64,000 nucleotides of DNA from Promethearchaeota archaeon. GTDB lineage: Archaea; Asgardarchaeota; Lokiarchaeia; Sigyniarchaeales; SOKP01. The DNA lies in the NCBI GenBank assembly GCA_016840085.1, contig JAEOTA010000086.1:137130-201129 (forward strand), read 5' to 3'. Shown piece by piece: positions 1,288 to 40,182 of this stretch (positions are counted from its first letter, which is position 1; every line of letters starts with the position of its first letter). The notes under the pieces are model-generated. The model worked only from the letters and a program-made list of their open reading frames with translations, had not been told where the DNA came from and did no database searches. The position numbers and the translations under genes are program-made.

Positions 1288-1863
1288 CTAATATATGATA
1301 TTATTTTTTGGGCGTCTTTTCAATTTAAGACCACAAATTTCACAAATTTTATTAAAATCTTCAGTTTTATGAATAGTTTTGCAATTTGGGCAATAAATTT
1401 CCCATATTATCTTTTTCTCAATCCCATCTTTATATAATGAAGTATATGGTATATTTAATTCAGAACATACATTCTCAATTGAATAATCATTAGTATAAAG
1501 GTTTACTTTTTGATGATAATTCACAGATAATTCTAATGTTAATGCTATTAATCCTTTATCAACATTTGATAAAGCATTTAAATCACCTGTTATTTTAGAT
1601 TTTTTATTTACATCTCGGATGTATTTAATACTAGGGATTTTTATCCTTAATTTTTCACTCTCGATAGCAGCGTAAATTTTATTTAATATATGTCTATTTT
1701 TTTCCATGTATTTACTGACTTTTACTTCTTCAATTACATATGGGGTGGTATATATGATGCTTTTAAATAGATTAAAATCAATTCCCGTAAGGAATATATT
1801 TGTATCAAAAACAGCAATTTGATCTTTATCTTTTATATCGTCATTCTTCAGGTGAGTCATCAA
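1288..1863 (-). CDS. nob1: Nob1 rRNA-maturation endonuclease (PIN + Zn ribbon)
   Basis: VFDTN, LSNVDKGLIAL, TNDYSIENV, C-terminal CPNC...CEICG. Confidence 0.9.
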   Translation of the reverse strand: MMTHLKNDDIKDKDQIAVFDTNIFLTGIDFNLFKSIIYTTPYVIEEVKVSKYMEKNRHILNKIYAAIESEKLRIKIPSIKYIRDVNKKSKITGDLNALSNVDKGLIALTLELSVNYHQKVNLYTNDYSIENVCSELNIPYTSLYKDGIEKKIIWEIYCPNCKTIHKTEDFNKICEICGLKLKRRPKNNIIY

Positions 1864-2737
1864 TGGGTACTCTCAATGTTCCTATAATTTTCTTCCTTAA
1901 ACGAGAATAATAACTTCTACTAAATCGAATGAATTTTGTTTGAGATTTGGATTTACGAATTCTAATTTTAGTATTAGGAGGAATTTCTTTAATGGTTCTC
2001 TGACCATCTATAACAATTTTAGCATTTAATCGTGGTCGTAAAAGCTGGATCTCAATTTCTGAGTCTATCGGAACTATTATTGGTTTTAACCCAGATCCAG
2101 CAAAACTATTTAATGGAGTGATTTGCATAATTTCCAAATTTGGATTAACTATTGCCCCACCAGCACTTAAGTTATAAGCTGTAGATCCAACAGATGTAGA
2201 AATTATTACACCATCTAAATAGGATCGGTTTAAAAAGGCACCATTAATTTTTATTGATACTTGTAAAACTTTAGAGCTTTTAGAAGATACAATTAAAACT
2301 TCATTTAATGCACTGTTAAGTTTTACTTCTTCAGAGTTCTTAACTATATATGGTGTAATTTTCGAACATACTTCACAATCATATTCACCACTTGAAGCTT
2401 TTATTAAATCTTTAAATACAGTTCTTTCATTTGATTCGTCTAAAAAGCCTATGGAACCAACATTGACTCCCAAAATAGGTGGTGGGTTTTTTTGAGATAA
2501 ACCATTTGCCACTCTTAATATTGATCCATCACCACCTATTATAACAATAAATTCTATATTCTCAGTGGTCATTTCTGCTAAATCCATACCATTATGTGCG
2601 AATATTTTAGGAGCGATCCTCGTTTCTAAATACACAACTTCTCCTTTTTGAATTAAAAATTCAAATATTCTCTTTGCTACTTTAATTGCTCTTTCAGAAT
2701 CCAATCTGCAAGCTATAGCAATAGGTTTTTTTTCCAT
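1841..2737 (-). CDS. nadK: NAD(+) kinase
   Basis: GGDGS, GVNVGSIGFL, ALNE, DGVIISTSVGSTAYNLSAGG. Confidence 0.95.
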   Translation of the reverse strand: MEKKPIAIACRLDSERAIKVAKRIFEFLIQKGEVVYLETRIAPKIFAHNGMDLAEMTTENIEFIVIIGGDGSILRVANGLSQKNPPPILGVNVGSIGFLDESNERTVFKDLIKASSGEYDCEVCSKITPYIVKNSEEVKLNSALNEVLIVSSKSSKVLQVSIKINGAFLNRSYLDGVIISTSVGSTAYNLSAGGAIVNPNLEIMQITPLNSFAGSGLKPIIVPIDSEIEIQLLRPRLNAKIVIDGQRTIKEIPPNTKIRIRKSKSQTKFIRFSRSYYSRLRKKIIGTLRVPIDDSPEE

Positions 2738-2857
2738 GGTTATATGTCATTCTTTAATAAGATCCTAACTAATTAAATATTGTTTATTACAAAAATAAAT
2801 AATTATATAAAAAATATAATTAATGATTAATGAAGCCGTAAAATGATTTAGGTGTGC

Positions 2858-3286
2858 CTAGTTTGTAAAAACCCTATTAATAAGAGTTTTACCGGCTAAT
2901 TGCCAAAATTCTACTTGCGTAGCTGAAATTTTATCAGGATTTGTTTGAAGATCTTTCAGTTTTTTAATTAAAACCTCATCACTGGGCCAATCAACATCAA
3001 TTGATTCATAAGATTCTAAATTCATTATGTTGATCGAAGCAACTTCGATAAAATTAATTTGAGCATTTCCTTTGATAATTTCAGGAATTTCTACCATCGA
3101 ACCACTTGGAAATGTTAAACTTCTCTTATTATTATCAAATACTCCTACACAAACGACTCTTACTTTTGCATGACCATGCTTTCCACTCTTAGAACGCTCA
3201 GTGCTTTTAATAATGCAAGGTTCTTCATCATCCATAATATATTGCCCTGATTTTAACTTTTGTATCTCTGTTCTTCTAATAGACAA
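2858..3286 (-). CDS. eif5a: Translation factor aIF5A/eIF5A
   Basis: Hypusine loop SKSGKHGHAK; TTG start. Confidence 0.95.
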   Translation of the reverse strand: MSIRRTEIQKLKSGQYIMDDEEPCIIKSTERSKSGKHGHAKVRVVCVGVFDNNKRSLTFPSGSMVEIPEIIKGNAQINFIEVASINIMNLESYESIDVDWPSDEVLIKKLKDLQTNPDKISATQVEFWQLAGKTLINRVFTN

Positions 3287-3438
3287 TTACTTTTCCACCT
3301 TAGTTTATCAATTTTTATCCAAATATTTTTAATTTTGATATTTCTTTTAATTTATAATATAATATATTTATTCAAAAAAAAATATTAGTTTTTGATTATT
3401 ATCTCAAATAATTCAACTAAATCTTTAGCTGGGATTTA

Positions 3439-4812
3439 ATGGTTTTATCACAACTTGGTAGATCTTTAGATAATGCAATTCGAAAAATTAGACGACTTCC
3501 TATCGTGGATAAAGATGCAATAAATGCTCTTATTCAGGACTTACAACGAAGTCTACTTAGTTCGGATGTAAAAGTGGAATTAGTCTTCCAGATGACAGAA
3601 AATATTAGAAAAGAAGCGACACGTACTAAACTTCAAAAAGCAAGAAGGAAAGATTTTGTAATTAAATTAGTACATGATGAGCTAATAAATCTTTTAGGAG
3701 GGAAACCAGCTCCGATACGTATAAAACCAGGAAAGAAGAATGTAATTCTACTTGTTGGTATTCAAGGTTCAGGTAAGACAACCACAATTGCAAAATTAGC
3801 AAAGTATTATAAAAGTAAAGGATTTAAGGTTGCCACATTGACTACTGATACTTGGCGACCTGGAGCTTATGAACAACTTGTCCAATTGTCAGAGCAAGTG
3901 GGAATAAAATGTTATGGTAATCCTAATGAAAAAAATGCTATTAAGATTGCTATTCAAGAAACAAAAAGAGCAATAAATGATGGGAATGATCTTATTATCG
4001 CAGATACTGCAGGTAGACATAAAGAAGAAAAAGAACTAATGAAAGAAATGTCAGTTCTTGAAGAAAAATTAAAACCAAATGAAATTATTTTAGTAATTGA
4101 TGGTACCTTAGGTCAACAAGCATTTAAACAAGCAGAGGCTTTTGCTCAGACAACTAATTTAGGCTCAATTATAGTCACTAAATTAGATGGAACTGCTAAA
4201 GGTGGTGGTGCTTTATCAGCTTGTGCAGCAGCAAAGGTAGGTATTCGTTTCATAGGGACAGGAGAAAAAATAGAAAATCTCGAAGAGTTTGAATCATCTA
4301 AATTTGTTGGAACATTACTTGGTATCCCTGATATCGAAAGTTTAATCCAAAAAGTACAAGAAGCAGAAGTCGTTCCAGATGATGAAACAGTCAGAAGGAT
4401 GATGATGGGGAAATTTACTCTTGAAGATTTATATATACAACTTACGAATATAAAAAAAGTTGGAAAATTTAAACAGATTTTATCTATGATGGGTGGAGGT
4501 AATATCCCAGATGTATTAAAGGAAGATGCTGAAAGGAATCTCGAAAAATGGAGGATTGTGTTAGATTCGATGACCCATGAAGAGAAGATCAATCCCAAAA
4601 TCATTAAAAAAACACGAAAAAGAAGAATTGCTATTGGAAGTGGGACAGAATATGCAGTGATTAATCGAATGCTTGAACAATATTCACAAATGAAAAAATT
4701 TATGCGAAGATTCCTCCAAATGCAGAAAAAAGGGAAAGGAGTCCCGGGGTTGCCGGGAATTCCTGGGGGAAAAGCGGCAGCAGATTTTATGAAAAAATTA
4801 GGTAAGTTTTAG
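3439..4812 (+). CDS. srp54: Signal recognition particle protein SRP54
   Basis: GIQGSGKTTT, DTWRPGA, DTAGRH, TKLDGTAKGGG, Met-rich M domain. Confidence 0.97.
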   Translation: MVLSQLGRSLDNAIRKIRRLPIVDKDAINALIQDLQRSLLSSDVKVELVFQMTENIRKEATRTKLQKARRKDFVIKLVHDELINLLGGKPAPIRIKPGKKNVILLVGIQGSGKTTTIAKLAKYYKSKGFKVATLTTDTWRPGAYEQLVQLSEQVGIKCYGNPNEKNAIKIAIQETKRAINDGNDLIIADTAGRHKEEKELMKEMSVLEEKLKPNEIILVIDGTLGQQAFKQAEAFAQTTNLGSIIVTKLDGTAKGGGALSACAAAKVGIRFIGTGEKIENLEEFESSKFVGTLLGIPDIESLIQKVQEAEVVPDDETVRRMMMGKFTLEDLYIQLTNIKKVGKFKQILSMMGGGNIPDVLKEDAERNLEKWRIVLDSMTHEEKINPKIIKKTRKRRIAIGSGTEYAVINRMLEQYSQMKKFMRRFLQMQKKGKGVPGLPGIPGGKAAADFMKKLGKF

Positions 4813-4834
4813 ATCAACAATTAGAGCCTTTTAT

Positions 4835-5491
4835 TTGATTAAATTGGTAAATTTTCTACTTCTATTAAAAAAGATTACCGACTATAGTAAAAAGGATATT
4901 GATAAAGGAAATATTCCTATTATTATTTATGAATTATGTTCATGTATAAGAGAGGCCTTCTGTTTATCTTATTCTATAAGAAAGGATAATAATTTATACT
5001 TATATTTTGAAAAAGAGTATGTTTTAATTAGATTTAAAGGAAAAAGATTAAGATATTTAGGTCCTGATGAGAGATCTCAAGCAATACTTTTAGATAAGGC
5101 CTTAAATAAAGCAAGACAGATCATCTCTCCAGAAAGTGAAAGATGGGAGAAATCAACTCCAGGAATATATATAAAAAAATACTCTGATAATAATTCTTTT
5201 ATGAATTCTTTTTTTTCAAATAAAAAAGGAAAGATATATCTCATTTTAGATAATTTTAAAGAAAATAATAAAAAAATAGATATTCTTTCATTAGATAAGG
5301 ACTTCTTAGCTATTTTGGATAATGATTTTTATATTATTCCGACTTATAATACTTTAAATGAAAATATGGAATTTTTAGAATTATTCAAAACCTTAAAAAA
5401 TATATTGAGATTATCCATTCCAAAAGCTAAAACAATAGAAAATAAAATTCTATATTTAAATTTTCGTAAGGATCAACAAACAAATCTATAA
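4835..5491 (+). CDS. TrmY-like (tRNA pseudouridine-54 N1-methyltransferase family) protein with a divergent C-terminus
   Basis: LCSCIREAFCLSYSIRKD, LRYLGPDERS and STPGI match the TrmY N-half. The SAM-knot motif is not recognisable. Confidence 0.6.
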   Translation: MIKLVNFLLLLKKITDYSKKDIDKGNIPIIIYELCSCIREAFCLSYSIRKDNNLYLYFEKEYVLIRFKGKRLRYLGPDERSQAILLDKALNKARQIISPESERWEKSTPGIYIKKYSDNNSFMNSFFSNKKGKIYLILDNFKENNKKIDILSLDKDFLAILDNDFYIIPTYNTLNENMEFLELFKTLKNILRLSIPKAKTIENKILYLNFRKDQQTNL

Positions 5492-5506
5492 TATTAAAAC
5501 ATAGAT

Positions 5507-6901
5507 ATGATTTTAAAAAACGCAAGAGTTTATTCTGATGGTTTAATTCATAATGGAGCTATTCTCATCAATAATGGTATTATAAGTCAAATTAAATTTA
5601 CCTCTAAAGCAGAAGAATTTAAAGAATTAACTGAAAAAAATCAAGATGGTAAAGAAATTGATTGTCAAAATAAATTAATCTTGCCAGGGATAATCGATAT
5701 TCATTCTCATTTGCGTGATATGGGACAAAAAGAAAAAGAAACATTCCTAACTGGTACGATGGCAGCTGCTTTTTCAGGGATAACAACCATATTTAATATG
5801 CCAAACACAAAACCACCAGCTATTACTGAAAAACAAGTTAAATCATGGATTAGAGAAGCCGAAAAAAATATTTATGTAGATGTAGGATTTATAGCAGGGG
5901 TTCCTAATGAAATAAATGAAGCTGAAATAGAAAAAATCATTAATTTAGGCATTTTTGGTTTCAAGATTTACCCTCTTAGTCCTTTAAATGATATAGATTG
6001 GAATAATGGTGTAAATATTCAAAAAATCCTAATTATCTCTTCTAAATACCAAGTTCCGATATTTATTCATGCTGCATTTCCTATCTCTGATTTTGAAAGA
6101 GAACAAATTACTGAAGAATTTAAAATTCAAAAAATTCCAATATTAGAATTTCATAATAGATTAAATCCAGTTAAAACAGAGGAAGAGTATATTAGCTTTA
6201 TAATTGAAAGCTATAAAAAGCTTATTATAGAAGAGGAATTTAATCCAAAGAAATATCCAATCATTCATTTTTGTCATGTGAGTTGTATCGAAAGCTATTT
6301 AACTATTCAAAGAGCCTTAAAATCAGATGACGATTTAAAAATATCTTACGAGGTCACACCACATCATCTACTATTGTCAAATAATCTAACTTTAACAAAT
6401 GTTAATTATGGAAAAGTATTACCTCCTTTAAGAAAACTGGAGCATCAAAAATTCTTATTCAATGAGTTAAAAGAAGGGAAAATTGAAATAATAGGCACTG
6501 ATCATGCACCCCACACAATAGAGGAAAAATCGTTAGAATATCTCAAAGCACCATCAGGGTTCCCCGGTTTTGAAACATATCCATTATTAATTCTTGATAA
6601 AATATTTAATTTCGAACTTCCATTAGAGAATTTTGTTAAGGCATCCTCTGAGAATCCCGCTAAGAAATTCAATTTAAAAAGTAAAGGTTTTATTAAAGAA
6701 GGTTATGATGCTGATTTATTAATTGTTGATAAAGTACCCAAATACCAACTAAATCTAAACAATTTTAGGACCAAAGCTAAATTTTCTCCTTTTGAAAATT
6801 TTAAAACTAGTGTTCAGATTTGGAAAGTATTTTTAAGGGGAATTGAAATAAATTATAATAATATTAACCCAAATGGAAAAATAATATATAGAAAGTTATA
6901 A
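5507..6901 (+). CDS. pyrC: Dihydroorotase (amidohydrolase superfamily)
   Basis: PGIIDIHSHLR, MPNTKP, HVS, EVTPHHL, GTDHAPH, ADL. Confidence 0.85.
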   Translation: MILKNARVYSDGLIHNGAILINNGIISQIKFTSKAEEFKELTEKNQDGKEIDCQNKLILPGIIDIHSHLRDMGQKEKETFLTGTMAAAFSGITTIFNMPNTKPPAITEKQVKSWIREAEKNIYVDVGFIAGVPNEINEAEIEKIINLGIFGFKIYPLSPLNDIDWNNGVNIQKILIISSKYQVPIFIHAAFPISDFEREQITEEFKIQKIPILEFHNRLNPVKTEEEYISFIIESYKKLIIEEEFNPKKYPIIHFCHVSCIESYLTIQRALKSDDDLKISYEVTPHHLLLSNNLTLTNVNYGKVLPPLRKLEHQKFLFNELKEGKIEIIGTDHAPHTIEEKSLEYLKAPSGFPGFETYPLLILDKIFNFELPLENFVKASSENPAKKFNLKSKGFIKEGYDADLLIVDKVPKYQLNLNNFRTKAKFSPFENFKTSVQIWKVFLRGIEINYNNINPNGKIIYRKL

Positions 6902-18659: not shown

Positions 18660-19520
18660 TTAATCAAATCTAAGTGAAAAATCCATAAATTCAGTAGGTC
18701 GTTGGGTTAATAATCCTAAACTTATAATATCTGGTTCTGCAATCAAAAAGTCAATTATGTTATCTTCAGATATACCTCCAGATATCTCAATAATTACTTG
18801 ATCTCTCAAACTATTTTTTTTTAATAAATTAATGGCATCCTCAACCTTATCAGGACTAAAATTATCTAACATGATAATATCTGCTCCATTCTTTGCAGCA
18901 ATCAACACGTCGCTGACTTTTTCTACTTCAATTTCAATTTTTTTTGTAAAGCTCGCTTTTTTATTTATATTTTTTAAAAGTAATTCTACATCTCCATCAT
19001 AATATTTCAAATGAGTGTCTTTCAAGAGAATCTCATCAAGTGAATATCGATGTGTGTCAGCTCCACCTAGTTCTACTGCTTTTTTTTCGAATATTCTGAT
19101 ACCTGGTGTTGTTTTACGAGTACAAGCGATCTTTACATTTTTTCCTGAATTTTTTATTATTTTTACGAATCTTTTAGTTGTTGAAGTTATATTACTCATA
19201 TGTGTTATTAGATTCAGCCCTACCCTTTCTCCAAGTAAAATATCTCTTGCATTCCCTTTTAATTCTGCTATAATATCTCCTTCTTTTACTTCTTCTCCAT
19301 CTCTTTTTATAAAATTAGTTGAAACACCTAATATATCGAATAGAATTTTCAACTCTTCAAGTCCAGAAATGTATCCATTACTTTTCGTAGAAATCCTAGC
19401 TGATACTTTAGTATTTTGAGGTATACATACAGAACTAACATCAGCAAAACTACAATCTTCTTCTAAAAACTCACGTAATTTCTTCTCAATAATAATTTTA
19501 TTATAACTCATTATTTGCAC
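18660..19520 (-). CDS. nadC: Quinolinate phosphoribosyltransferase
   Basis: ERVGLN, CTRKTTPG, HR, LKDTH, IEIEV, IMLDN, SGG. Confidence 0.95.
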   Translation of the reverse strand: MQIMSYNKIIIEKKLREFLEEDCSFADVSSVCIPQNTKVSARISTKSNGYISGLEELKILFDILGVSTNFIKRDGEEVKEGDIIAELKGNARDILLGERVGLNLITHMSNITSTTKRFVKIIKNSGKNVKIACTRKTTPGIRIFEKKAVELGGADTHRYSLDEILLKDTHLKYYDGDVELLLKNINKKASFTKKIEIEVEKVSDVLIAAKNGADIIMLDNFSPDKVEDAINLLKKNSLRDQVIIEISGGISEDNIIDFLIAEPDIISLGLLTQRPTEFMDFSLRFD

Positions 19521-19566
19521 AAATGTCTATAGTATAATTATTATAGGTTAAATATTAAATAAAATT

Positions 19567-20205
19567 ATGGTAGAAATTGATATACTATTCATTAATAATA
19601 ATGAAATTAAGCTGGAAGCGGAATATTACCAATCAAGTTTACGTAATACAAGGCCATCTGTTTTAATTTGTCATCCGCATCCACAATTTGGTGGTAATAT
19701 GCATAATAATATTGTTTCTGCGGTATTTAACAAATTAATCAATAGCAATATCTCTTGTTTAAGATTCAATTTTAGAGGTGTTGGAAGATCTTCTGGAAAT
19801 CATTCAGATGGAATGGGTGAATTAAGTGATGTTAAGGCATCTGTAGATTTTTTAATTAATAATAAAAAATGTGAGAAAATCATTATTTGTGGCTATTCAT
19901 ATGGTGCTGTAATAGGGTGTTCAGCAGTTAATTATTCAGATAAGATAATTGGTTTTATCTCCATATCTTTTCCATGGGATTTTATGGGAGCGAAATTCAA
20001 AGAATTATCTCAAACTTCGAAAAAAAAACTATTTATTCAAGGAAATCGTGATACCGTTGCTCGTTATGAAAATTTCTATGAAAATTTTAATTTATACTTA
20101 AATCCAAAAATAAGCAAAATTATCGATGGCGCAGATCACTTTTATGGGGGTTACGAAGAACAAGTTGCTAATGCAATTCTAGATTTTTATTATTCCATTG
20201 TCTAA
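19567..20205 (+). CDS. Alpha/beta hydrolase (COG2945-like)
   Basis: CHPHPQFGGNM, RFNFRGVG, GYSYG nucleophile elbow, GNRD, GADHF. Confidence 0.9.
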   Translation: MVEIDILFINNNEIKLEAEYYQSSLRNTRPSVLICHPHPQFGGNMHNNIVSAVFNKLINSNISCLRFNFRGVGRSSGNHSDGMGELSDVKASVDFLINNKKCEKIIICGYSYGAVIGCSAVNYSDKIIGFISISFPWDFMGAKFKELSQTSKKKLFIQGNRDTVARYENFYENFNLYLNPKISKIIDGADHFYGGYEEQVANAILDFYYSIV

Positions 20206-31323: not shown

Positions 31324-31908
31324 TTAATCAGTTTTGGATCCACAATATTGACAAAATTTTAATTCTAATGGATAATGTTTTCCGCAATTAGGGCATTTTT
31401 TTAGTGAATTCTTAAGAATTTCCCTCCCTAACATTTCAAAAGCTTTTTCTACATTTTCACCTGTTTTTGAGGATGTACCAAGCATATCTCCTTTAAATTT
31501 AAACTTTTCAAATATTTCTAAAGCATCTTCTCTTTTCACTTTTCTTTTTAAATCAATTTTAGCTTCAATTAATATTTTTGTTTTAGGAGAATTTGGAACA
31601 GAAGAGATAACGTTTATCCAATCATAGAGATCATTTAAAGAATCTTTATTTGACACATCGTATAACATTAAAGCTCCAGACGCACCAGATACATAAGAAG
31701 GGAATAAAAGTCGGAATTTCTTTTCTCCAGCAAAATCCCAAATATTTAGAAGTATTTCTGTATCATCAACCACTACTTTTTTCGTTTCAAAATCAACACC
31801 AATAGTTGATAATGTAGATATTTCGAATTTACCTGTTGCATACCGGCGGATTAAACTTGTCTTGCCTACATTTTTAGCTCCAGCAACAACAACTTTAAAT
31901 TTTATCAT
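31324..31908 (-). CDS. Rab/Ras-like small GTPase with a C-terminal Zn ribbon
   Basis: G1 GAKNVGKTS, STIGVDF, G3 WDFAGE, G4 AKID, G5 TSSK; tail CPNC...CQYC. Confidence 0.92.
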   Translation of the reverse strand: MIKFKVVVAGAKNVGKTSLIRRYATGKFEISTLSTIGVDFETKKVVVDDTEILLNIWDFAGEKKFRLLFPSYVSGASGALMLYDVSNKDSLNDLYDWINVISSVPNSPKTKILIEAKIDLKRKVKREDALEIFEKFKFKGDMLGTSSKTGENVEKAFEMLGREILKNSLKKCPNCGKHYPLELKFCQYCGSKTD

Positions 31909-31993: not shown

Positions 31994-34303
31994 TTATTGA
32001 TTTGGTTTGTACTTATATCTACTTATTTTATAAATCTCTTGAGCAATTTTTTTACCAATACTCTCAATTTTAATTAAATCAGGAATGTCTGCTAAAACTA
32101 ATTTCTGTAAAGTCTTAAATTCATTCAATAAATTTTTAGCTCGAAGATTATTTACACCTGGAATTCCAGCAACAATATATTCTAAAAGATGCGAAGTTTC
32201 AATAGGTGCTTTATCAAACCGTATAGAAATTTTATTCTTAGATTCGGACTGTTCTTTTTTTGCCAGTTGATATAAAAACATAGCAGTTTCTTCAGAATTC
32301 TCCGTTTTATATACACTTATGCCTAAATTTAGAATAATTGTAGTAATCGCTCCATATAGCGCATTTTCGTTAATAGTAGATTCATTAAATGGATCACCTT
32401 CTAAGATTAATATAGAGCTTTCAAACCTATTCTTTAGATCAAATAATTCATTGAATAATCTTCCATCCTTTATTGAATCGATAAAGTCTTGAGCCGTCTT
32501 TCTTTCAATACCGACTCTATTTGAAAGCACATAATCCGCAATAGGTAATTGCTCTAATTTTAAGGTTACACCCATTAATGAAAGTGTTCTAACAACAGAC
32601 GATGCTGTCTCTCGATTATCACATATAATTTGGTACTTATTAGCGTCATCTATTTTTTGATTTAGCATTATCCCACTTTCTTTTGTCACAAAATCTAAAA
32701 GATTTGATTGTCCTGATTTCTCTAATTGTTCCGATTGTTTTATCTTTCCTAAACTATCTCTCATATTTCTTTCTTTAACTTTTTCTGCCCAATAATATCC
32801 CTCATCCCTTGTATCTTCTGCCATTAAGATGTAAACTTTTCCCTCTTTTTTACGCCCAGTACGACCTCGGCGCTGAATTGCTCGTATAGCACTTGGCACC
32901 ACATCATAAAAAACAACTAGATCACATTCTGCTATATCTAATCCTTCCTCCGCGACACTTGTTCCTATAAGAGTGTTATATATCCCTTTTTTAAATTCTT
33001 CCAGGATTCTAATTTGCTCTTTCTGAGTTAAACCTTTATCAGAACCTTTTTTAGCTTGCCCTACAAATTTGTGAGCATTTATTATCTCATCTTTCTCAAA
33101 ATATCTTACAATGTTATTCACTGAGTCTCTAAAATGACAGAAGACTAATATTCTTGAATTTTTATGATCTTTAAGTTGAGACCTTAGAATTTTTTTTAAT
33201 TTCTCAAGTTTGGGATGAACTATACCCTTCGATTGGATTTGATATGTTAGCTCTATTACCCGTTTGATATCATTATCTAAAAACAATTCTTTCAAAGATT
33301 TATTAGCTAAATTATTTTTTACTTTTTCTTCATTTTTCACGATATAATCTTTTAGAGCATTAATTCCTTGAGTTTCAAGAAGTTCAAGCATATGAGAGAT
33401 TCGAATAGCATTAGCCTGTAGTTTTTTAGCGTAAAACATCTCAAACTTTTCACTATCATCTCGTAAGAATGAAATCTTTCTATTAATAACTGTATTAAGC
33501 TGTAAAAGATCTTTCCTCGTTACTTTATTCACATCATAGGAATTGAGTAATTCCTTTTCTTTTAACCATTTATAAATATTTTTTAGTTTTTCTTCTAAAA
33601 TTTTTTTAATCTCTATGAATTCATTAGGAAGCTTAATTTTTATCCATTTATTATCCACATCTTGGATATATGGTTTAACATCAACATCATTTTCAGTTCT
33701 TATTTCTACATGGTTGATAAATAAATTTTGTTTTATTTCGTTAATTTTTTCTTGAGTAGAACCCGGGCTTGCTGTTAAACCTAAAATCTGAGGAGTTATT
33801 GCACTTTCAATATATTTTTTGGCAATAAAACAATAAGCATAATCACCTATGGCTCTATGACACTCATCAAAAATGATCAAAGAGACATCTTTTATCGAAT
33901 AATTTTTAGATATAATATCATTTTGTAATACTTGGGGTGTCATAAAAGCCACACGGAGTTTTTCCCATAATATTTTTCTTTTCACCGGTGGCGTGGTACC
34001 TGTTATTGATACTAGTTCATCAGGATTAATCTCGGTTAAACTTAAAAAAGAGTTATAATGTTGCTCTACTAAAGGTTTTGTTGGAGCTAATAAAATGACT
34101 TTAGAATCTGGTATATCAGTTAATTTTTGAACTGTTAGCATTAATGCTATAATTGTTTTCCCTAAACCTGTAGGAATAACCACTAAACAATTTTTATTTA
34201 GGCAATTTATAAAAATGTTTTCTTGATATTTCCGTCGAGAAATTAAATTACTCTTAATTAGGGGATGTGAAATGAAATCATTTTTTATTGAGACTGAAAT
34301 CAC
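31994..34303 (-). CDS. hef: Hef/FANCM-like helicase-nuclease
   Basis: PTGLGKT, DECH, TASP, QRRGRTGR; ERCC4 DNRE, GIERK, HhH2. Confidence 0.95.
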   Translation of the reverse strand: MISVSIKNDFISHPLIKSNLISRRKYQENIFINCLNKNCLVVIPTGLGKTIIALMLTVQKLTDIPDSKVILLAPTKPLVEQHYNSFLSLTEINPDELVSITGTTPPVKRKILWEKLRVAFMTPQVLQNDIISKNYSIKDVSLIIFDECHRAIGDYAYCFIAKKYIESAITPQILGLTASPGSTQEKINEIKQNLFINHVEIRTENDVDVKPYIQDVDNKWIKIKLPNEFIEIKKILEEKLKNIYKWLKEKELLNSYDVNKVTRKDLLQLNTVINRKISFLRDDSEKFEMFYAKKLQANAIRISHMLELLETQGINALKDYIVKNEEKVKNNLANKSLKELFLDNDIKRVIELTYQIQSKGIVHPKLEKLKKILRSQLKDHKNSRILVFCHFRDSVNNIVRYFEKDEIINAHKFVGQAKKGSDKGLTQKEQIRILEEFKKGIYNTLIGTSVAEEGLDIAECDLVVFYDVVPSAIRAIQRRGRTGRKKEGKVYILMAEDTRDEGYYWAEKVKERNMRDSLGKIKQSEQLEKSGQSNLLDFVTKESGIMLNQKIDDANKYQIICDNRETASSVVRTLSLMGVTLKLEQLPIADYVLSNRVGIERKTAQDFIDSIKDGRLFNELFDLKNRFESSILILEGDPFNESTINENALYGAITTIILNLGISVYKTENSEETAMFLYQLAKKEQSESKNKISIRFDKAPIETSHLLEYIVAGIPGVNNLRAKNLLNEFKTLQKLVLADIPDLIKIESIGKKIAQEIYKISRYKYKPNQ

Positions 34304-34494: not shown

Positions 34495-34598
34495 GCGCGA
34501 GTGGTTTAGTGGTTATAACAACACGCTCACACCGTGTATTTCTGTGAAAATTGCTTTATAGATAACGAAGGTCGGGGGTTCAAATCCCCCCTTGCGCA
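34495..34598 (+). tRNA. tRNA-Val(CAC) with a 31-nt intron at non-canonical position 44/45 (34539-34569)
   Basis: Acceptor GCGCGAG/CTTGCGC-A; D-arm GTTT-AGTGGTTA-TAAC; anticodon arm ACACG-CT CAC AC-CGTGT; T-arm GGGGG-TTCAAAT-CCCCC. The insert forms a hairpin (TCTGTGAA/TTTATAGA) with relaxed bulge-helix-bulge geometry. Confidence 0.9.
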
Positions 34599-35544
34599 TT
34601 TTTCAATCTTGTTAAAAATTCTTTACTCTCTATTAATTTTAAATTTAAATTAACCATTTAATTTTAAATATCATTACTTAAAACTAAAATTGAAGAAAAC
34701 CTGCACTAAATGCCAGAGAACCTTGGATTTAACGCATTTTCGGATATCAAAAGGATATAATAGTAATATCTGTAGAAAATGTGAATTAAAACAAAAAAAT
34801 ATAAGAAATTTTCAGATTAAGTATAAGATTATTAAAAATTATTTTAATGGAAAATGCAGAGATTGTGAAACTAATTATTTGAACCTTCCAGCTTTAGAAT
34901 TTCACCATCCTGATTTGAGCAAAAAAACTACAACATGGAGGAAACTCAAAGGGCAAAGTTATTCAAATATTCTTAGCAGACTTTTATATGATAAAGTCCA
35001 ACTTTTATGCAGAAATTGCCATACTTTAGCAGGAGCCACTACATTTAAATTTTATAAGGAAATTATTCTAAAATATGATTTTCCTTTAAATGATATTAAT
35101 AAAAACAATATTCTTGATTCAATAAATAATGAGTTACATCAGTTCCATTTAGATGAGAAATTCAATAACAAAACTAAATATCACATTTTAAAATGGATTA
35201 AGAAAAAATCATTAATTGAACTACTCTATAAGGGTAGTTGTGTTGGGTGTGAAAAAACCAATATTGAAAACAATCTACCCGCTTTAATTTTTCATCATTT
35301 AGATCAGTTTAAAAAAGATAAAATCTCAAGATGGCAAAAAATCTCAAATTTGAGCATACAAGAAATTATAAATTTATTAAAAAAAGAAAAATGTGTTTGT
35401 CTATGTGCTAATTGTCATAAATTTATTGAATCAATACAATTTTTAGAACAACAAAACTTAATTATAGGTGAAAGGAATGCTTTAGAAGTGAAAAGAACGT
35501 TTAATCTAATTATCTCAAGAATAGAAAATTTTAATATAATTTAG
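34539..35544 (+). mobile_element. Putative tRNA-targeting HNH cassette (new intron + replacement tRNA 3' half + endonuclease gene)
   Basis: Lies between the tRNA 5' half (to position 44) and a second tRNA 3' half starting at about position 46. The only ORF is a tandem HNH nuclease; there is no integrase. Confidence 0.6.
34690..35544 (+). CDS. Tandem HNH endonuclease with an N-terminal Zn finger
   Basis: CTKC...CRKC, then two repeats of CxxC...LPALxFHH...LCxNCH; TTG start. Confidence 0.85.
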   Translation: MKKTCTKCQRTLDLTHFRISKGYNSNICRKCELKQKNIRNFQIKYKIIKNYFNGKCRDCETNYLNLPALEFHHPDLSKKTTTWRKLKGQSYSNILSRLLYDKVQLLCRNCHTLAGATTFKFYKEIILKYDFPLNDINKNNILDSINNELHQFHLDEKFNNKTKYHILKWIKKKSLIELLYKGSCVGCEKTNIENNLPALIFHHLDQFKKDKISRWQKISNLSIQEIINLLKKEKCVCLCANCHKFIESIQFLEQQNLIIGERNALEVKRTFNLIISRIENFNII

Positions 35545-35601
35545 ACAGGGGTTCAAAATTCTGAAAATCTATTTTGGTGTGAATTGTTCCCTCCTCGCGC
35601 A
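35544..35601 (+). pseudogene. Orphan tRNA 3' half (about positions 46-73) with a ~30-nt T-loop (59/60) intron
   Basis: GAC-AGGGG-TTCAAA-[35558-35587]-T-CCCTC-CTCGCGC-A. CTCGCGC is the perfect complement of the upstream tRNA's GCGCGAG. An A49.C65 mismatch suggests decay. Confidence 0.75.
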
Positions 35602-35689
35602 TTTACTTTATTGCCTTTAAAAATCGAAAAAGTTATATGATATTTTGCATTTTTTAAATCTAATTACTGATTTTATGGTTAATTCAACC

Positions 35690-35992
35690 ATGTCTAGTTT
35701 CTTAGAATCTCGAGAATTACGTAAACTCTATAAGAAAGTAAGAAAAAATATTAAAATTGGATCAATTTTTTTAACTAGATACGAGAAAGCAAGGATTGTA
35801 GGGGCCAGAGCTCTACAAATATCATTTGGGGCTCCAATCTTAGTGGAAAAACCAGTAGATATGATAGATCCTATTAAAATTGCTCAATTAGAATTAAAAT
35901 CAAAAATCTTACCTTTAACTATTAGACGAGAAAATCCCAGTGGAGAATACCAAGATATCCCAATAAATAAACTAATTTTAAAAAAAGATTAG
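35690..35992 (+). CDS. rpoK: RNA polymerase subunit Rpo6/K
   Basis: LTRYEKARIVGARALQIS.GAP, LPLTIRR. ATG at 35690 (or 35675) is preferred over TTG at 35645. Confidence 0.95.
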   Translation: MSSFLESRELRKLYKKVRKNIKIGSIFLTRYEKARIVGARALQISFGAPILVEKPVDMIDPIKIAQLELKSKILPLTIRRENPSGEYQDIPINKLILKKD

Positions 35993-39036: not shown

Positions 39037-40182
39037 ATGGCAGAAGAAGAAAGCTTTCTGAATGCAAAAGCATTAGTAGTAGACAATGGTACAGGTATCT
39101 CAAAAAATGGTTTTGCCGGAGAAGATCAACCTCGTTCTGTCTTTCCCACTCTTATTGGTTATCCTAAATATGAATCTATCATGACAGATGTTGAGCATTA
39201 TACACGGGAATACTATATTGGGGAAGAAGCCATGCAGCTTAAAGGTGTTCTAAAACTCATGTTCCCTGTTGAACATGGTATTATTGAAGATTGGACTGCC
39301 ATGGAGAAAATCTGGCACTATACATTCTATACGGATCTAAGAATCGATCCAAGCGAACATCCAGTACTTTTAACAGAAGCGCCATTAAATCCACGGCCCA
39401 ACCGTGAAAAAATGGCCGAAATTATGTTTGAGACCTTTAATACTCCTGCTCTTTATGTCGCAATGCAGGCAGTTTTATCTCTCTATGCTTCTGGTCGTAC
39501 TACGGGGTGTGTTATAGATATTGGTGATGGAGTATCCCACGTTGTACCAATCTTCGAAGGATTCGCCTTAAGTCATGCTATTCAGAGAATTGATCTTGCG
39601 GGTAGAGACATAACCACTTATTTACAACGATTACTCAGACAAAAAGGATATTCTTTTACAACATCAGCTGAAAAGCAAATTGTGAGAGATATAAAGGAGA
39701 AACTATGCTACGTCGCAATTGATCCCGAGAAAGAGATGATGTTGAGTAAGAAAGTTGCTGGAATGGAAAAAAGCTACATGCTACCTGATGGTGAAACCAT
39801 CAATGTTGGTGTAGAAAGATTTTTAGCTCCTGAATGCTTTTTTAATCCATCAGTAATCGGGAAAGAGCTTGAACCCTTAGATGACGTAATAGTTGGTTCC
39901 ATTTCCGAGTGTGATGTTGATCTCCGCCGAGATCTTTATAGCAACATCGTTTTATCTGGCGGGAGCACTATGTTCCCTGGTATAAAGGAACGGTTAACGA
40001 AAGAGATAAAAGAGCAAATCCCGGAGAGCGTCGATGTTAAAATAATTGCTCCACCTGAGCGTATGTATTCAGTCTGGATCGGTGGATCAATTTTAAGCTC
40101 ACTTAAAACATTCCATCGTATGTGGGTCACCAGACGAGAATATAAAGAGATGGGTCCCCAAGTTATTCACAGATGCTTTTAA
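39037..40182 (+). CDS. Conserved Asgard actin (lokiactin)
   Basis: [77 protein letters not shown]. Confidence 0.97.

Follow-up and report, generated by a model that had tools for sequence, protein, structure and literature searches.

A tandem-HNH endonuclease gene at a tRNA-Val gene of Lokiarchaeia, apparently tied to the swap of one tRNA intron and the loss of another

Organization of the tRNA-Val locus

The sequence analyzed, referred to as the window, is a stretch of 64,000 nucleotides from a genome of the Lokiarchaeia (G000). Between the hef and rpoK genes it contains a tRNA-Val(CAC) gene with a short intron, a gene coding for a tandem HNH protein and a second, stranded tRNA-Val 3' half. 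Positions are reported in Table 1.

Table 1. Features of the tRNA-Val/HNH locus, in window coordinates
Feature	Position	Strand	Basis
tRNA-Val(CAC) 5' exon, tRNA positions 1-44, host-derived	34495..34538	+	Rfam tRNA; near-identity to HNH-free relatives at the hef-rpoK locus
31-nt BHB intron at 44/45; old position, sequence probably foreign and brought by the cassette	34539..34569	+	intron comparisons
Replacement 3' exon, tRNA positions 45-73, intron-free T loop, completing the functional tRNA	34570..34598	+	conserved in L210 and G024
AT-rich spacer, 91 bp; T run after the tRNA; possible archaeal promoter for the nuclease	34599..34689	+	promoter by eye
Tandem HNH endonuclease, 284 aa, single chain	34690..35544	+	PHROG HNH families, motifs, AlphaFold
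Stranded original exon, tRNA positions 45-58, decaying	35544..35556	+	intact in L210; mutated differently in window and L035
Original T-loop intron, 30 nt, 58/59, now outside the functional gene	35557..35586	+	orthologous to introns of HNH-free sisters
Stranded original 3' end, tRNA positions 59-73, running into the ancestral downstream flank towards rpoK	35587..35601	+	alignment with empty alleles
Inferred cassette, taking the place of the host's old 44/45 intron	34539..35543	+	carriers versus sister-clade empty alleles
hef helicase-nuclease, conserved left flank	31994..34303	-	Pfam; synteny
rpoK (Rpo6), conserved right flank	35645..35992	+	Pfam; synteny

The Rfam tRNA model matches 34495-34598 with 58.7 bits, the insert falling in the variable region. 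When 34539-34569 is taken out, a 73-nt tRNA-Val(CAC) is obtained, whose 44-48 junction is that of intron-free relatives (L006). In the BHB of the 44/45 intron, three of the four pairs of the 4-bp helix are formed in the window, and the helix is perfect in several relatives, splicing itself being a prediction. The HNH gene is the sole ORF between the two 3' halves, and no integrase was found in the cassette, as proposed in a first-pass annotation, which had described an integrase-free element of 1 kb; the order of parts given there (5' exon, 44/45 intron, 3' half, spacer, HNH gene, second 3' half) is also found at every place.

The stranded half overlaps the last base of the TAG stop codon of the HNH gene. 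It is undamaged in a second carrier, L210, where its first base is exactly G45; the copy therefore begins at the 44/45 position, and not at 46, as had been annotated. Similarly, the T-loop intron, placed earlier at 59/60, lies at 58/59 according to the BHB register in relatives. Direct repeats of the tRNA end are present at both borders of the cassette, and the two copies differ by one intron and several substitutions. A 14-nt copy of a tRNA tail within 6 kb was encountered 0 times in shuffles.

ARAGORN gave no match at the locus by default and mostly noise when relaxed; tRNAs in the analyzed loci were identified by a custom T-arm detector, calibrated on G000. A scan for sigma-70 promoters, a model unsuited to archaea, gave results at shuffle level. 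Genes for a Lokiactin (39037-40182) and for a Rab-like GTPase with a zinc-ribbon tail (31324-31908) lie near the locus.

Other carriers and decay of the cassette

The cassette is also found in three other assemblies, frameshifted in two and reduced to a deletion scar in one. In ENA assembly ERZ23499022 (L210) it is 94% identical to that of the window, and the HNH gene has a stop and a frameshift. In Logan assembly SRR29975709 (L035), the contig holds only the 3' part, with one HNH frameshift. In genome G024, the one with the deletion scar, four pieces remain: the tRNA, the beginning of the spacer, the final codons of the nuclease gene, and a stranded half that has decayed. A misassembly, considered in the first-pass annotation, is ruled out by these three occurrences. 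No further carriers were found in a scan of metagenome contigs.

As judged from these alignments, the nuclease gene decays after fixation by frameshifts and deletion, leaving a tRNA scar. Decay of the distal T arm has followed separate courses in the window, in L035 and in G024, whereas the proximal half is conserved. In one comparison, two adjacent host genes spanned a pN/pS range that includes the 0.37-0.47 of the HNH gene, which was counted against homing.

Empty alleles and origin of the two 3' halves

The hef-rpoK locus was read in about 58 genomes (GTDB). An intact HNH gene occurs at this place in none of the approximately 57 other genomes, that of G024 being the scar. tRNA-Val alleles thus exist with and without the HNH gene, and the cassette is an optional insertion. 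In a tree of the flanking proteins the carriers form one clade, whose sister group consists of ten genomes. Most sister alleles combine the 44/45 and 58/59 introns with a distal-type 3' end and have no HNH gene.

The stranded intron of the window shows 66-76% identity to the 58/59 introns of the HNH-free sisters, versus 44±8% for shuffles. Because of this orthology, the distal half is assigned as the original 3' half of tRNA-Val. The proximal one is read as foreign. The same polarity had been proposed earlier from the pairing of the acceptor strand, an observation which is right but would weigh little by itself. G088 and G094, which belong to another genus, have the same intron-free 3' exon as the carriers, base for base.

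The 44/45 intron gives a different picture. It was found in 48 of the 135 family genomes, distributed over five genera, and so was not gained here. Its sequence in the carriers shows only 37-56% identity to the introns of the sister clade, i.e. shuffle level (p about 0.4), whereas the 44/45 introns of the sisters are 71-96% alike among themselves, and even those of other genera match them. The carriers' intron is best matched in two other genera (p about 0.002); its exact donor was found neither in G000 nor in the fetched loci. The 44/45 intron was thus probably swapped for a foreign one, as the first-pass annotation had suggested, while the 58/59 intron was displaced. The same annotation had predicted an empty allele devoid of a 44/45 intron, and hence the gain of an intron at a new position, masking the target site. 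These predictions are contradicted by the HNH-free relatives, which carry a 44/45 intron already, together with the 58/59 intron in the sister clade: the event reads as a swap plus a loss, and carriers here cannot owe their immunity simply to a new intron that masks the site.

The old 44/45 intron of the host was detected in neither copy, including the region upstream of the stranded half (p 0.4-0.5 versus shuffles), which fits an exchange on both sides, by two crossovers or gene conversion, better than one on a single side. A single crossover, followed by erosion of the old 32-nt AT-rich intron, might still have given the same pattern. In the simplest reading, the segment 34539-35543 would have replaced the host intron, so that one intron was swapped and one displaced. 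Recruitment of the HNH C-terminus from the old intron is unsupported (p 0.5).

Other rearrangements are seen at the same locus. In L007, L016, L125 and L145 (G029, G032, G097 and G021, respectively) a tRNA-Val(CAC) with a wholly different body lies upstream of rpoK; in L016 and L125 a decayed tail of the old tRNA-Val follows downstream, indicating whole-gene replacement at the site with no HNH gene left. L004 (G025) has an intron-free T loop and an apparent decayed second 3' end downstream of tRNA-Val, possibly another scar of T-loop intron loss. In L298 and L301 (G146 and G142) an unrelated gene of about 363 aa separates tRNA-Val from rpoK, and a tail copy was not detected.

The tandem HNH protein

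Behind an N-terminal zinc finger the protein has two CxxC..HH..CxNCH modules, in each of which the catalytic motifs HH and CxNCH are intact. It matches HNH families of PHROG (E 5e-19), and its AlphaFold model has a pLDDT of 88.9 and a pTM of 0.86. Families 2255 and 3106 of PHROG contain the same module, mostly as single-domain phage proteins, and the window protein also matches single HNH proteins of phages. Structural searches of BFVD returned tandem-HNH matches, those to Medusavirus and Clandestinovirus proteins covering the full length with a TM of about 0.44. Pfam gave no match, and the HNH-domain matches returned from the PDB were all weak (E at least 0.87, Z below 5). No published function or target was found for PHROG 2255/3106 or for the tandem-HNH families of giant viruses.

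The gene is single-copy in G000. The nearest sister of the window protein is L031, whose contig ends upstream of the gene.

The HNH family at tRNA genes

A profile search identified the tandem-HNH domain in 60 of the 134 other genomes of the family; it is almost absent elsewhere in the class. A tRNA 3' end lies within 600 bp of 39/81 HNH loci, as scored by the T-arm detector (44/81 with manual additions), versus 39/2728 ORFs of G000 (1.4%) with the same detector; the 81 loci are not independent, as they fall in clades, but about nine different tRNA loci are represented among clades that are separate. The tRNA linkage of homologues anticipated by the first-pass annotation therefore stands, while specificity for tRNAs does not, since ends of protein genes are also involved (see below). 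About 37 of the 81 loci are away from tRNAs, most of them without duplication, which was counted against homing. The tree of HNH proteins was a quick one, used for grouping only.

The nuclease stop often abuts the duplicated tRNA end. Cassettes containing the HNH gene alone, together with a stranded tRNA piece, were found at tRNA-Pro (L038, L072, L074, L146), tRNA-Asn (L086) and tRNA-Arg (L176), and with 5' stubs at tRNA-His (L173, L175); at tRNA-Pro and tRNA-Gln there are also versions in which the HNH gene is accompanied by one to three further genes. Functional and stranded copies differ in their introns at Pro, Asn and His, and the T-loop intron in the stranded tRNA-Pro of G102 has its match in the G095 empty allele. 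One HNH clade at tRNA-Pro is spread over several genera. Two queries revealed no tyrosine-recombinase-like genes around the 81 HNH loci, and none was found on the cassette contigs.

Two clades of about 318 aa (L080-L085, L147-L149, L194) are located upstream of tRNA-Arg(CCT), in divergent orientation, often beside a small Sm-like gene, and are intact across genera. No tRNA fragment was found at these loci, a result counted against homing, and the two clades are possibly domesticated. Some members of the family are much longer (L186, L187, L169 and L195, 900-1650 aa), and in some of these there are additional HNH modules or helix-turn-helix domains at the C-terminus. Intron positions in tRNA-Pro differ widely between close relatives, and in some genomes (L089, L097, L108, L111) this tRNA has a T-stem intron, at about 52/53.

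Protein-gene targets and viral relatives

In five cases the HNH gene separates a complete protein gene from a stranded copy of its own 3' end, 100-240 bp long and 73-87% identical. The genes code for a dihydrolipoamide dehydrogenase-like protein, an acyl-CoA dehydrogenase, a DEAD helicase, an ABC permease and a dUTPase. Here the duplication of the end is what is seen; foreign and native copies were told apart at tRNA-Val. At L155, L184 and L191 the HNH members stand between duplicate 5' ends of a protein gene (an ABC transporter and two others), and gene replacement may therefore work at either end.

Among viral single-domain HNH relatives, a tRNA is present in the central 1.1 kb at 34 of 54 loci, versus 7.5 in outer windows. 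These genes often lie in tRNA clusters, and for most of them no stranded fragment was detected (fragments in 4/60 tests, one of them convincing). The phage contig L220 shows the succession tRNA, nuclease, stranded half, as in the window. The tandem-HNH family probably derives from such viral single-domain genes abutting tRNAs.

Proposed mechanism and alternatives

The comparisons show that, to all appearances, a two-intron allele was converted into one made of the host 5' exon, a foreign 44/45 intron, a foreign intron-free 3' exon, the nuclease gene and the stranded host 3' half; as far as gene arrangements can be read, they also show one protein family recurring in this arrangement at further tRNAs as well as protein genes, without a recombinase in the cassette. 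The best reading, to which we assign a probability of about 0.7, is that of a free-standing HNH homing endonuclease carrying a substitute end of its target gene. The predicted target of the two HNH modules, joined in one chain, is the allele without the cassette, which they would cut near positions 44-58. Its repair would then copy the cassette from a carrier chromosome or from incoming DNA, through homology on both sides, and the diverged replacement end would keep the gene functional while protecting the carrier from cutting. For tRNA-Val, the outcome would be one intron swapped and one lost. Homing would require carrier and empty alleles within one cell, a demand which, for Lokiarchaeia, was counted against it.

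In the main rival reading, the same layout would stem from a tyrosine integrase, either since lost or working in trans, that integrated a circle having a foreign tRNA-Val 3' half as attachment site, the HNH gene being cargo left after erosion, in line with the pNOB8-type model for a Caldiarchaeum tRNA-Thr. The arrangement of left and right repeats is classic for such tRNA-targeted islets, an intron change through integration of this kind has been described (PMC3293823), and G000 does have two tyrosine recombinases, on other contigs and away from detected tRNAs; non-HNH cargo is also found between tRNA tail repeats in G000, and stacked repeats in G088. One crossover, however, should, barring later erosion, have kept the host 44/45 intron in one of the copies, and neither has a detectable one. 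It would also be necessary to explain why, at several unrelated tRNAs and at the five protein genes with diverged end duplications of 100-240 bp, the cassette holds a gene of this HNH family and no other, and why none of the cassettes examined has a recombinase; the protein-gene cases are left unaccounted for. Integration of this kind is therefore considered unlikely.

Still less probable is the capture, illegitimate or assisted by homology, of a foreign tRNA end together with a neighbouring gene, the nuclease having no role and HNH genes being merely frequent neighbours of tRNAs in donor viruses. The position of the viral relatives in tRNA clusters, mostly with no detectable stranded fragment, agrees with this, as do the HNH-less whole-gene replacements at the tRNA-Val locus; it would explain neither the protein-gene cases, nor why the HNH stop so regularly adjoins the duplicated end, nor how one clade at tRNA-Pro spread over several genera. 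The entire 1 kb might finally be regarded as one giant BHB intron, the HNH gene being its homing-endonuclease ORF and the distal half the functional 3' exon, given that the first base of this half falls exactly at the 44/45 splice site and that its acceptor strand forms 7/7 pairs with the 5' one. Such a reading is barely credible and was rejected, since the BHB partner helix is absent before the distal G45 and it is the distal half that decays.

Comparison with known systems

The nearest parallels to the proposed homing endonuclease are the mobile ORFs of fungal mitochondria (Allomyces atp6; Glomus atp6, atp9, cox2 and nad3), in which a nuclease near the end of a gene brings a foreign end, and the native end is stranded about 1 kb downstream (PMC3630166). 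Gene hybrids are formed, as here, and the native end clusters with relatives while the inserted one does not (PMC3630166). The fungal enzymes are LAGLIDADG or GIY-YIG proteins in organelle protein genes, whereas a tandem HNH protein of an archaeal chromosome is involved here, whose predicted targets include both tRNAs and protein genes and which would change tRNA intron content. SegB of phages T4/T6 is a free-standing homing endonuclease reported to cut inside tRNA genes, at a T-arm motif, and to be enriched beside tRNAs of many isotypes (PMC2330249, PMC13096335). It resembles the HNH protein in being free-standing and targeting tRNA genes (a prediction for the latter), but it is a GIY-YIG enzyme located between the tRNAs of a phage cluster, converts the region and involves no introns; no stranded tRNA half was found described in the portions of these sources consulted (PMC2330249, PMC13096335).

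In archaea, a 1.8-kb insertion separates a tRNA fragment from a complete tRNA-Thr(GGU) with different introns in Caldiarchaeum subterraneum (PMC3293823). This is likewise a small insertion with two tRNA copies unlike in intron content; it contains a putative recombinase, was read as a pNOB8-type integration, leaves a 5' fragment and concerns one locus. SSV1- and pNOB8-type elements share with the window the tRNA target and the direct repeat of the tRNA end (PMC3293823), and the Asgard aloposons and HeimV1 the tRNA target (PMC8813620). SSV1-type, pNOB8-type and HeimV1 elements carry integrases, and all of these, aloposons included, are far larger than the window cassette. The nearest Asgard precedent is HeimM2, of 8 kb, with a homing-endonuclease homologue between 16S rRNA and tRNA-Arg; its nuclease has been described as resembling enzymes of rRNA introns, unlike the HNH protein of the window. 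The tandem-HNH family was not found described in the Asgard mobile-element literature searched.

Implications for tRNA intron turnover

Free-standing homing endonucleases which replace gene ends are of a known kind, apparently undescribed in Asgard archaea. What the present alignments add is a cassette at tRNA-Val that appears tied to the swap of one intron and the loss of another. A 2026 census of Asgard tRNA introns reported repeated gains and turnover, without a route of arrival; mobile elements were scored by homology to hallmark proteins, by published elements and by local features, and its main text contains neither the word HNH nor the word homing (10.64898/2026.10.13.758758). A small, fast-decaying HNH element is one that such screens may miss. 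The element is associated with an altered intron content of functional tRNAs, for Val and apparently also for Pro, Asn and His, and would offer a testable route for Asgard tRNA intron turnover. It would shift existing introns between lineages and create none, and so bears on turnover rather than on ultimate origin. It is possible, although doubtful, that the tandem-HNH family is a main engine of this turnover in Lokiarchaeia: each invasion would import a foreign tRNA half with another set of introns, giving swap, loss or gain, intron differences would confer immunity on the carrier, and the nuclease would later be deleted, leaving short scars. If so, the missing route of arrival of Asgard tRNA introns would be supplied.

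The gene-hybrid strategy of fungal mitochondria would thereby be extended to archaeal chromosomes, and phylogenies of tRNAs and gene ends in these genomes can be chimeric. The family would also constitute a large set of compact, single-chain, double-HNH nucleases with predictable targets.

Tail repeats around other genes

A second process also puts genes at tRNA ends, since tail repeats surround non-HNH genes at two tRNAs of G000 and in G088, a point counted against homing. On contig C78 of G000, at about 19370-19950, a downstream copy of the tRNA tail encloses a short zinc-ribbon-like remnant. On the minus strand of C85, the tail copy of a tRNA-Ala lies 811 bp downstream, enclosing a gene for a 203-aa membrane protein. 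In L071 (G088), at 1729-5980, a tRNA-Pro is followed by three stacked 3' repeats between cassettes of one or two genes, an arrangement like that of a tRNA-anchored cassette array.
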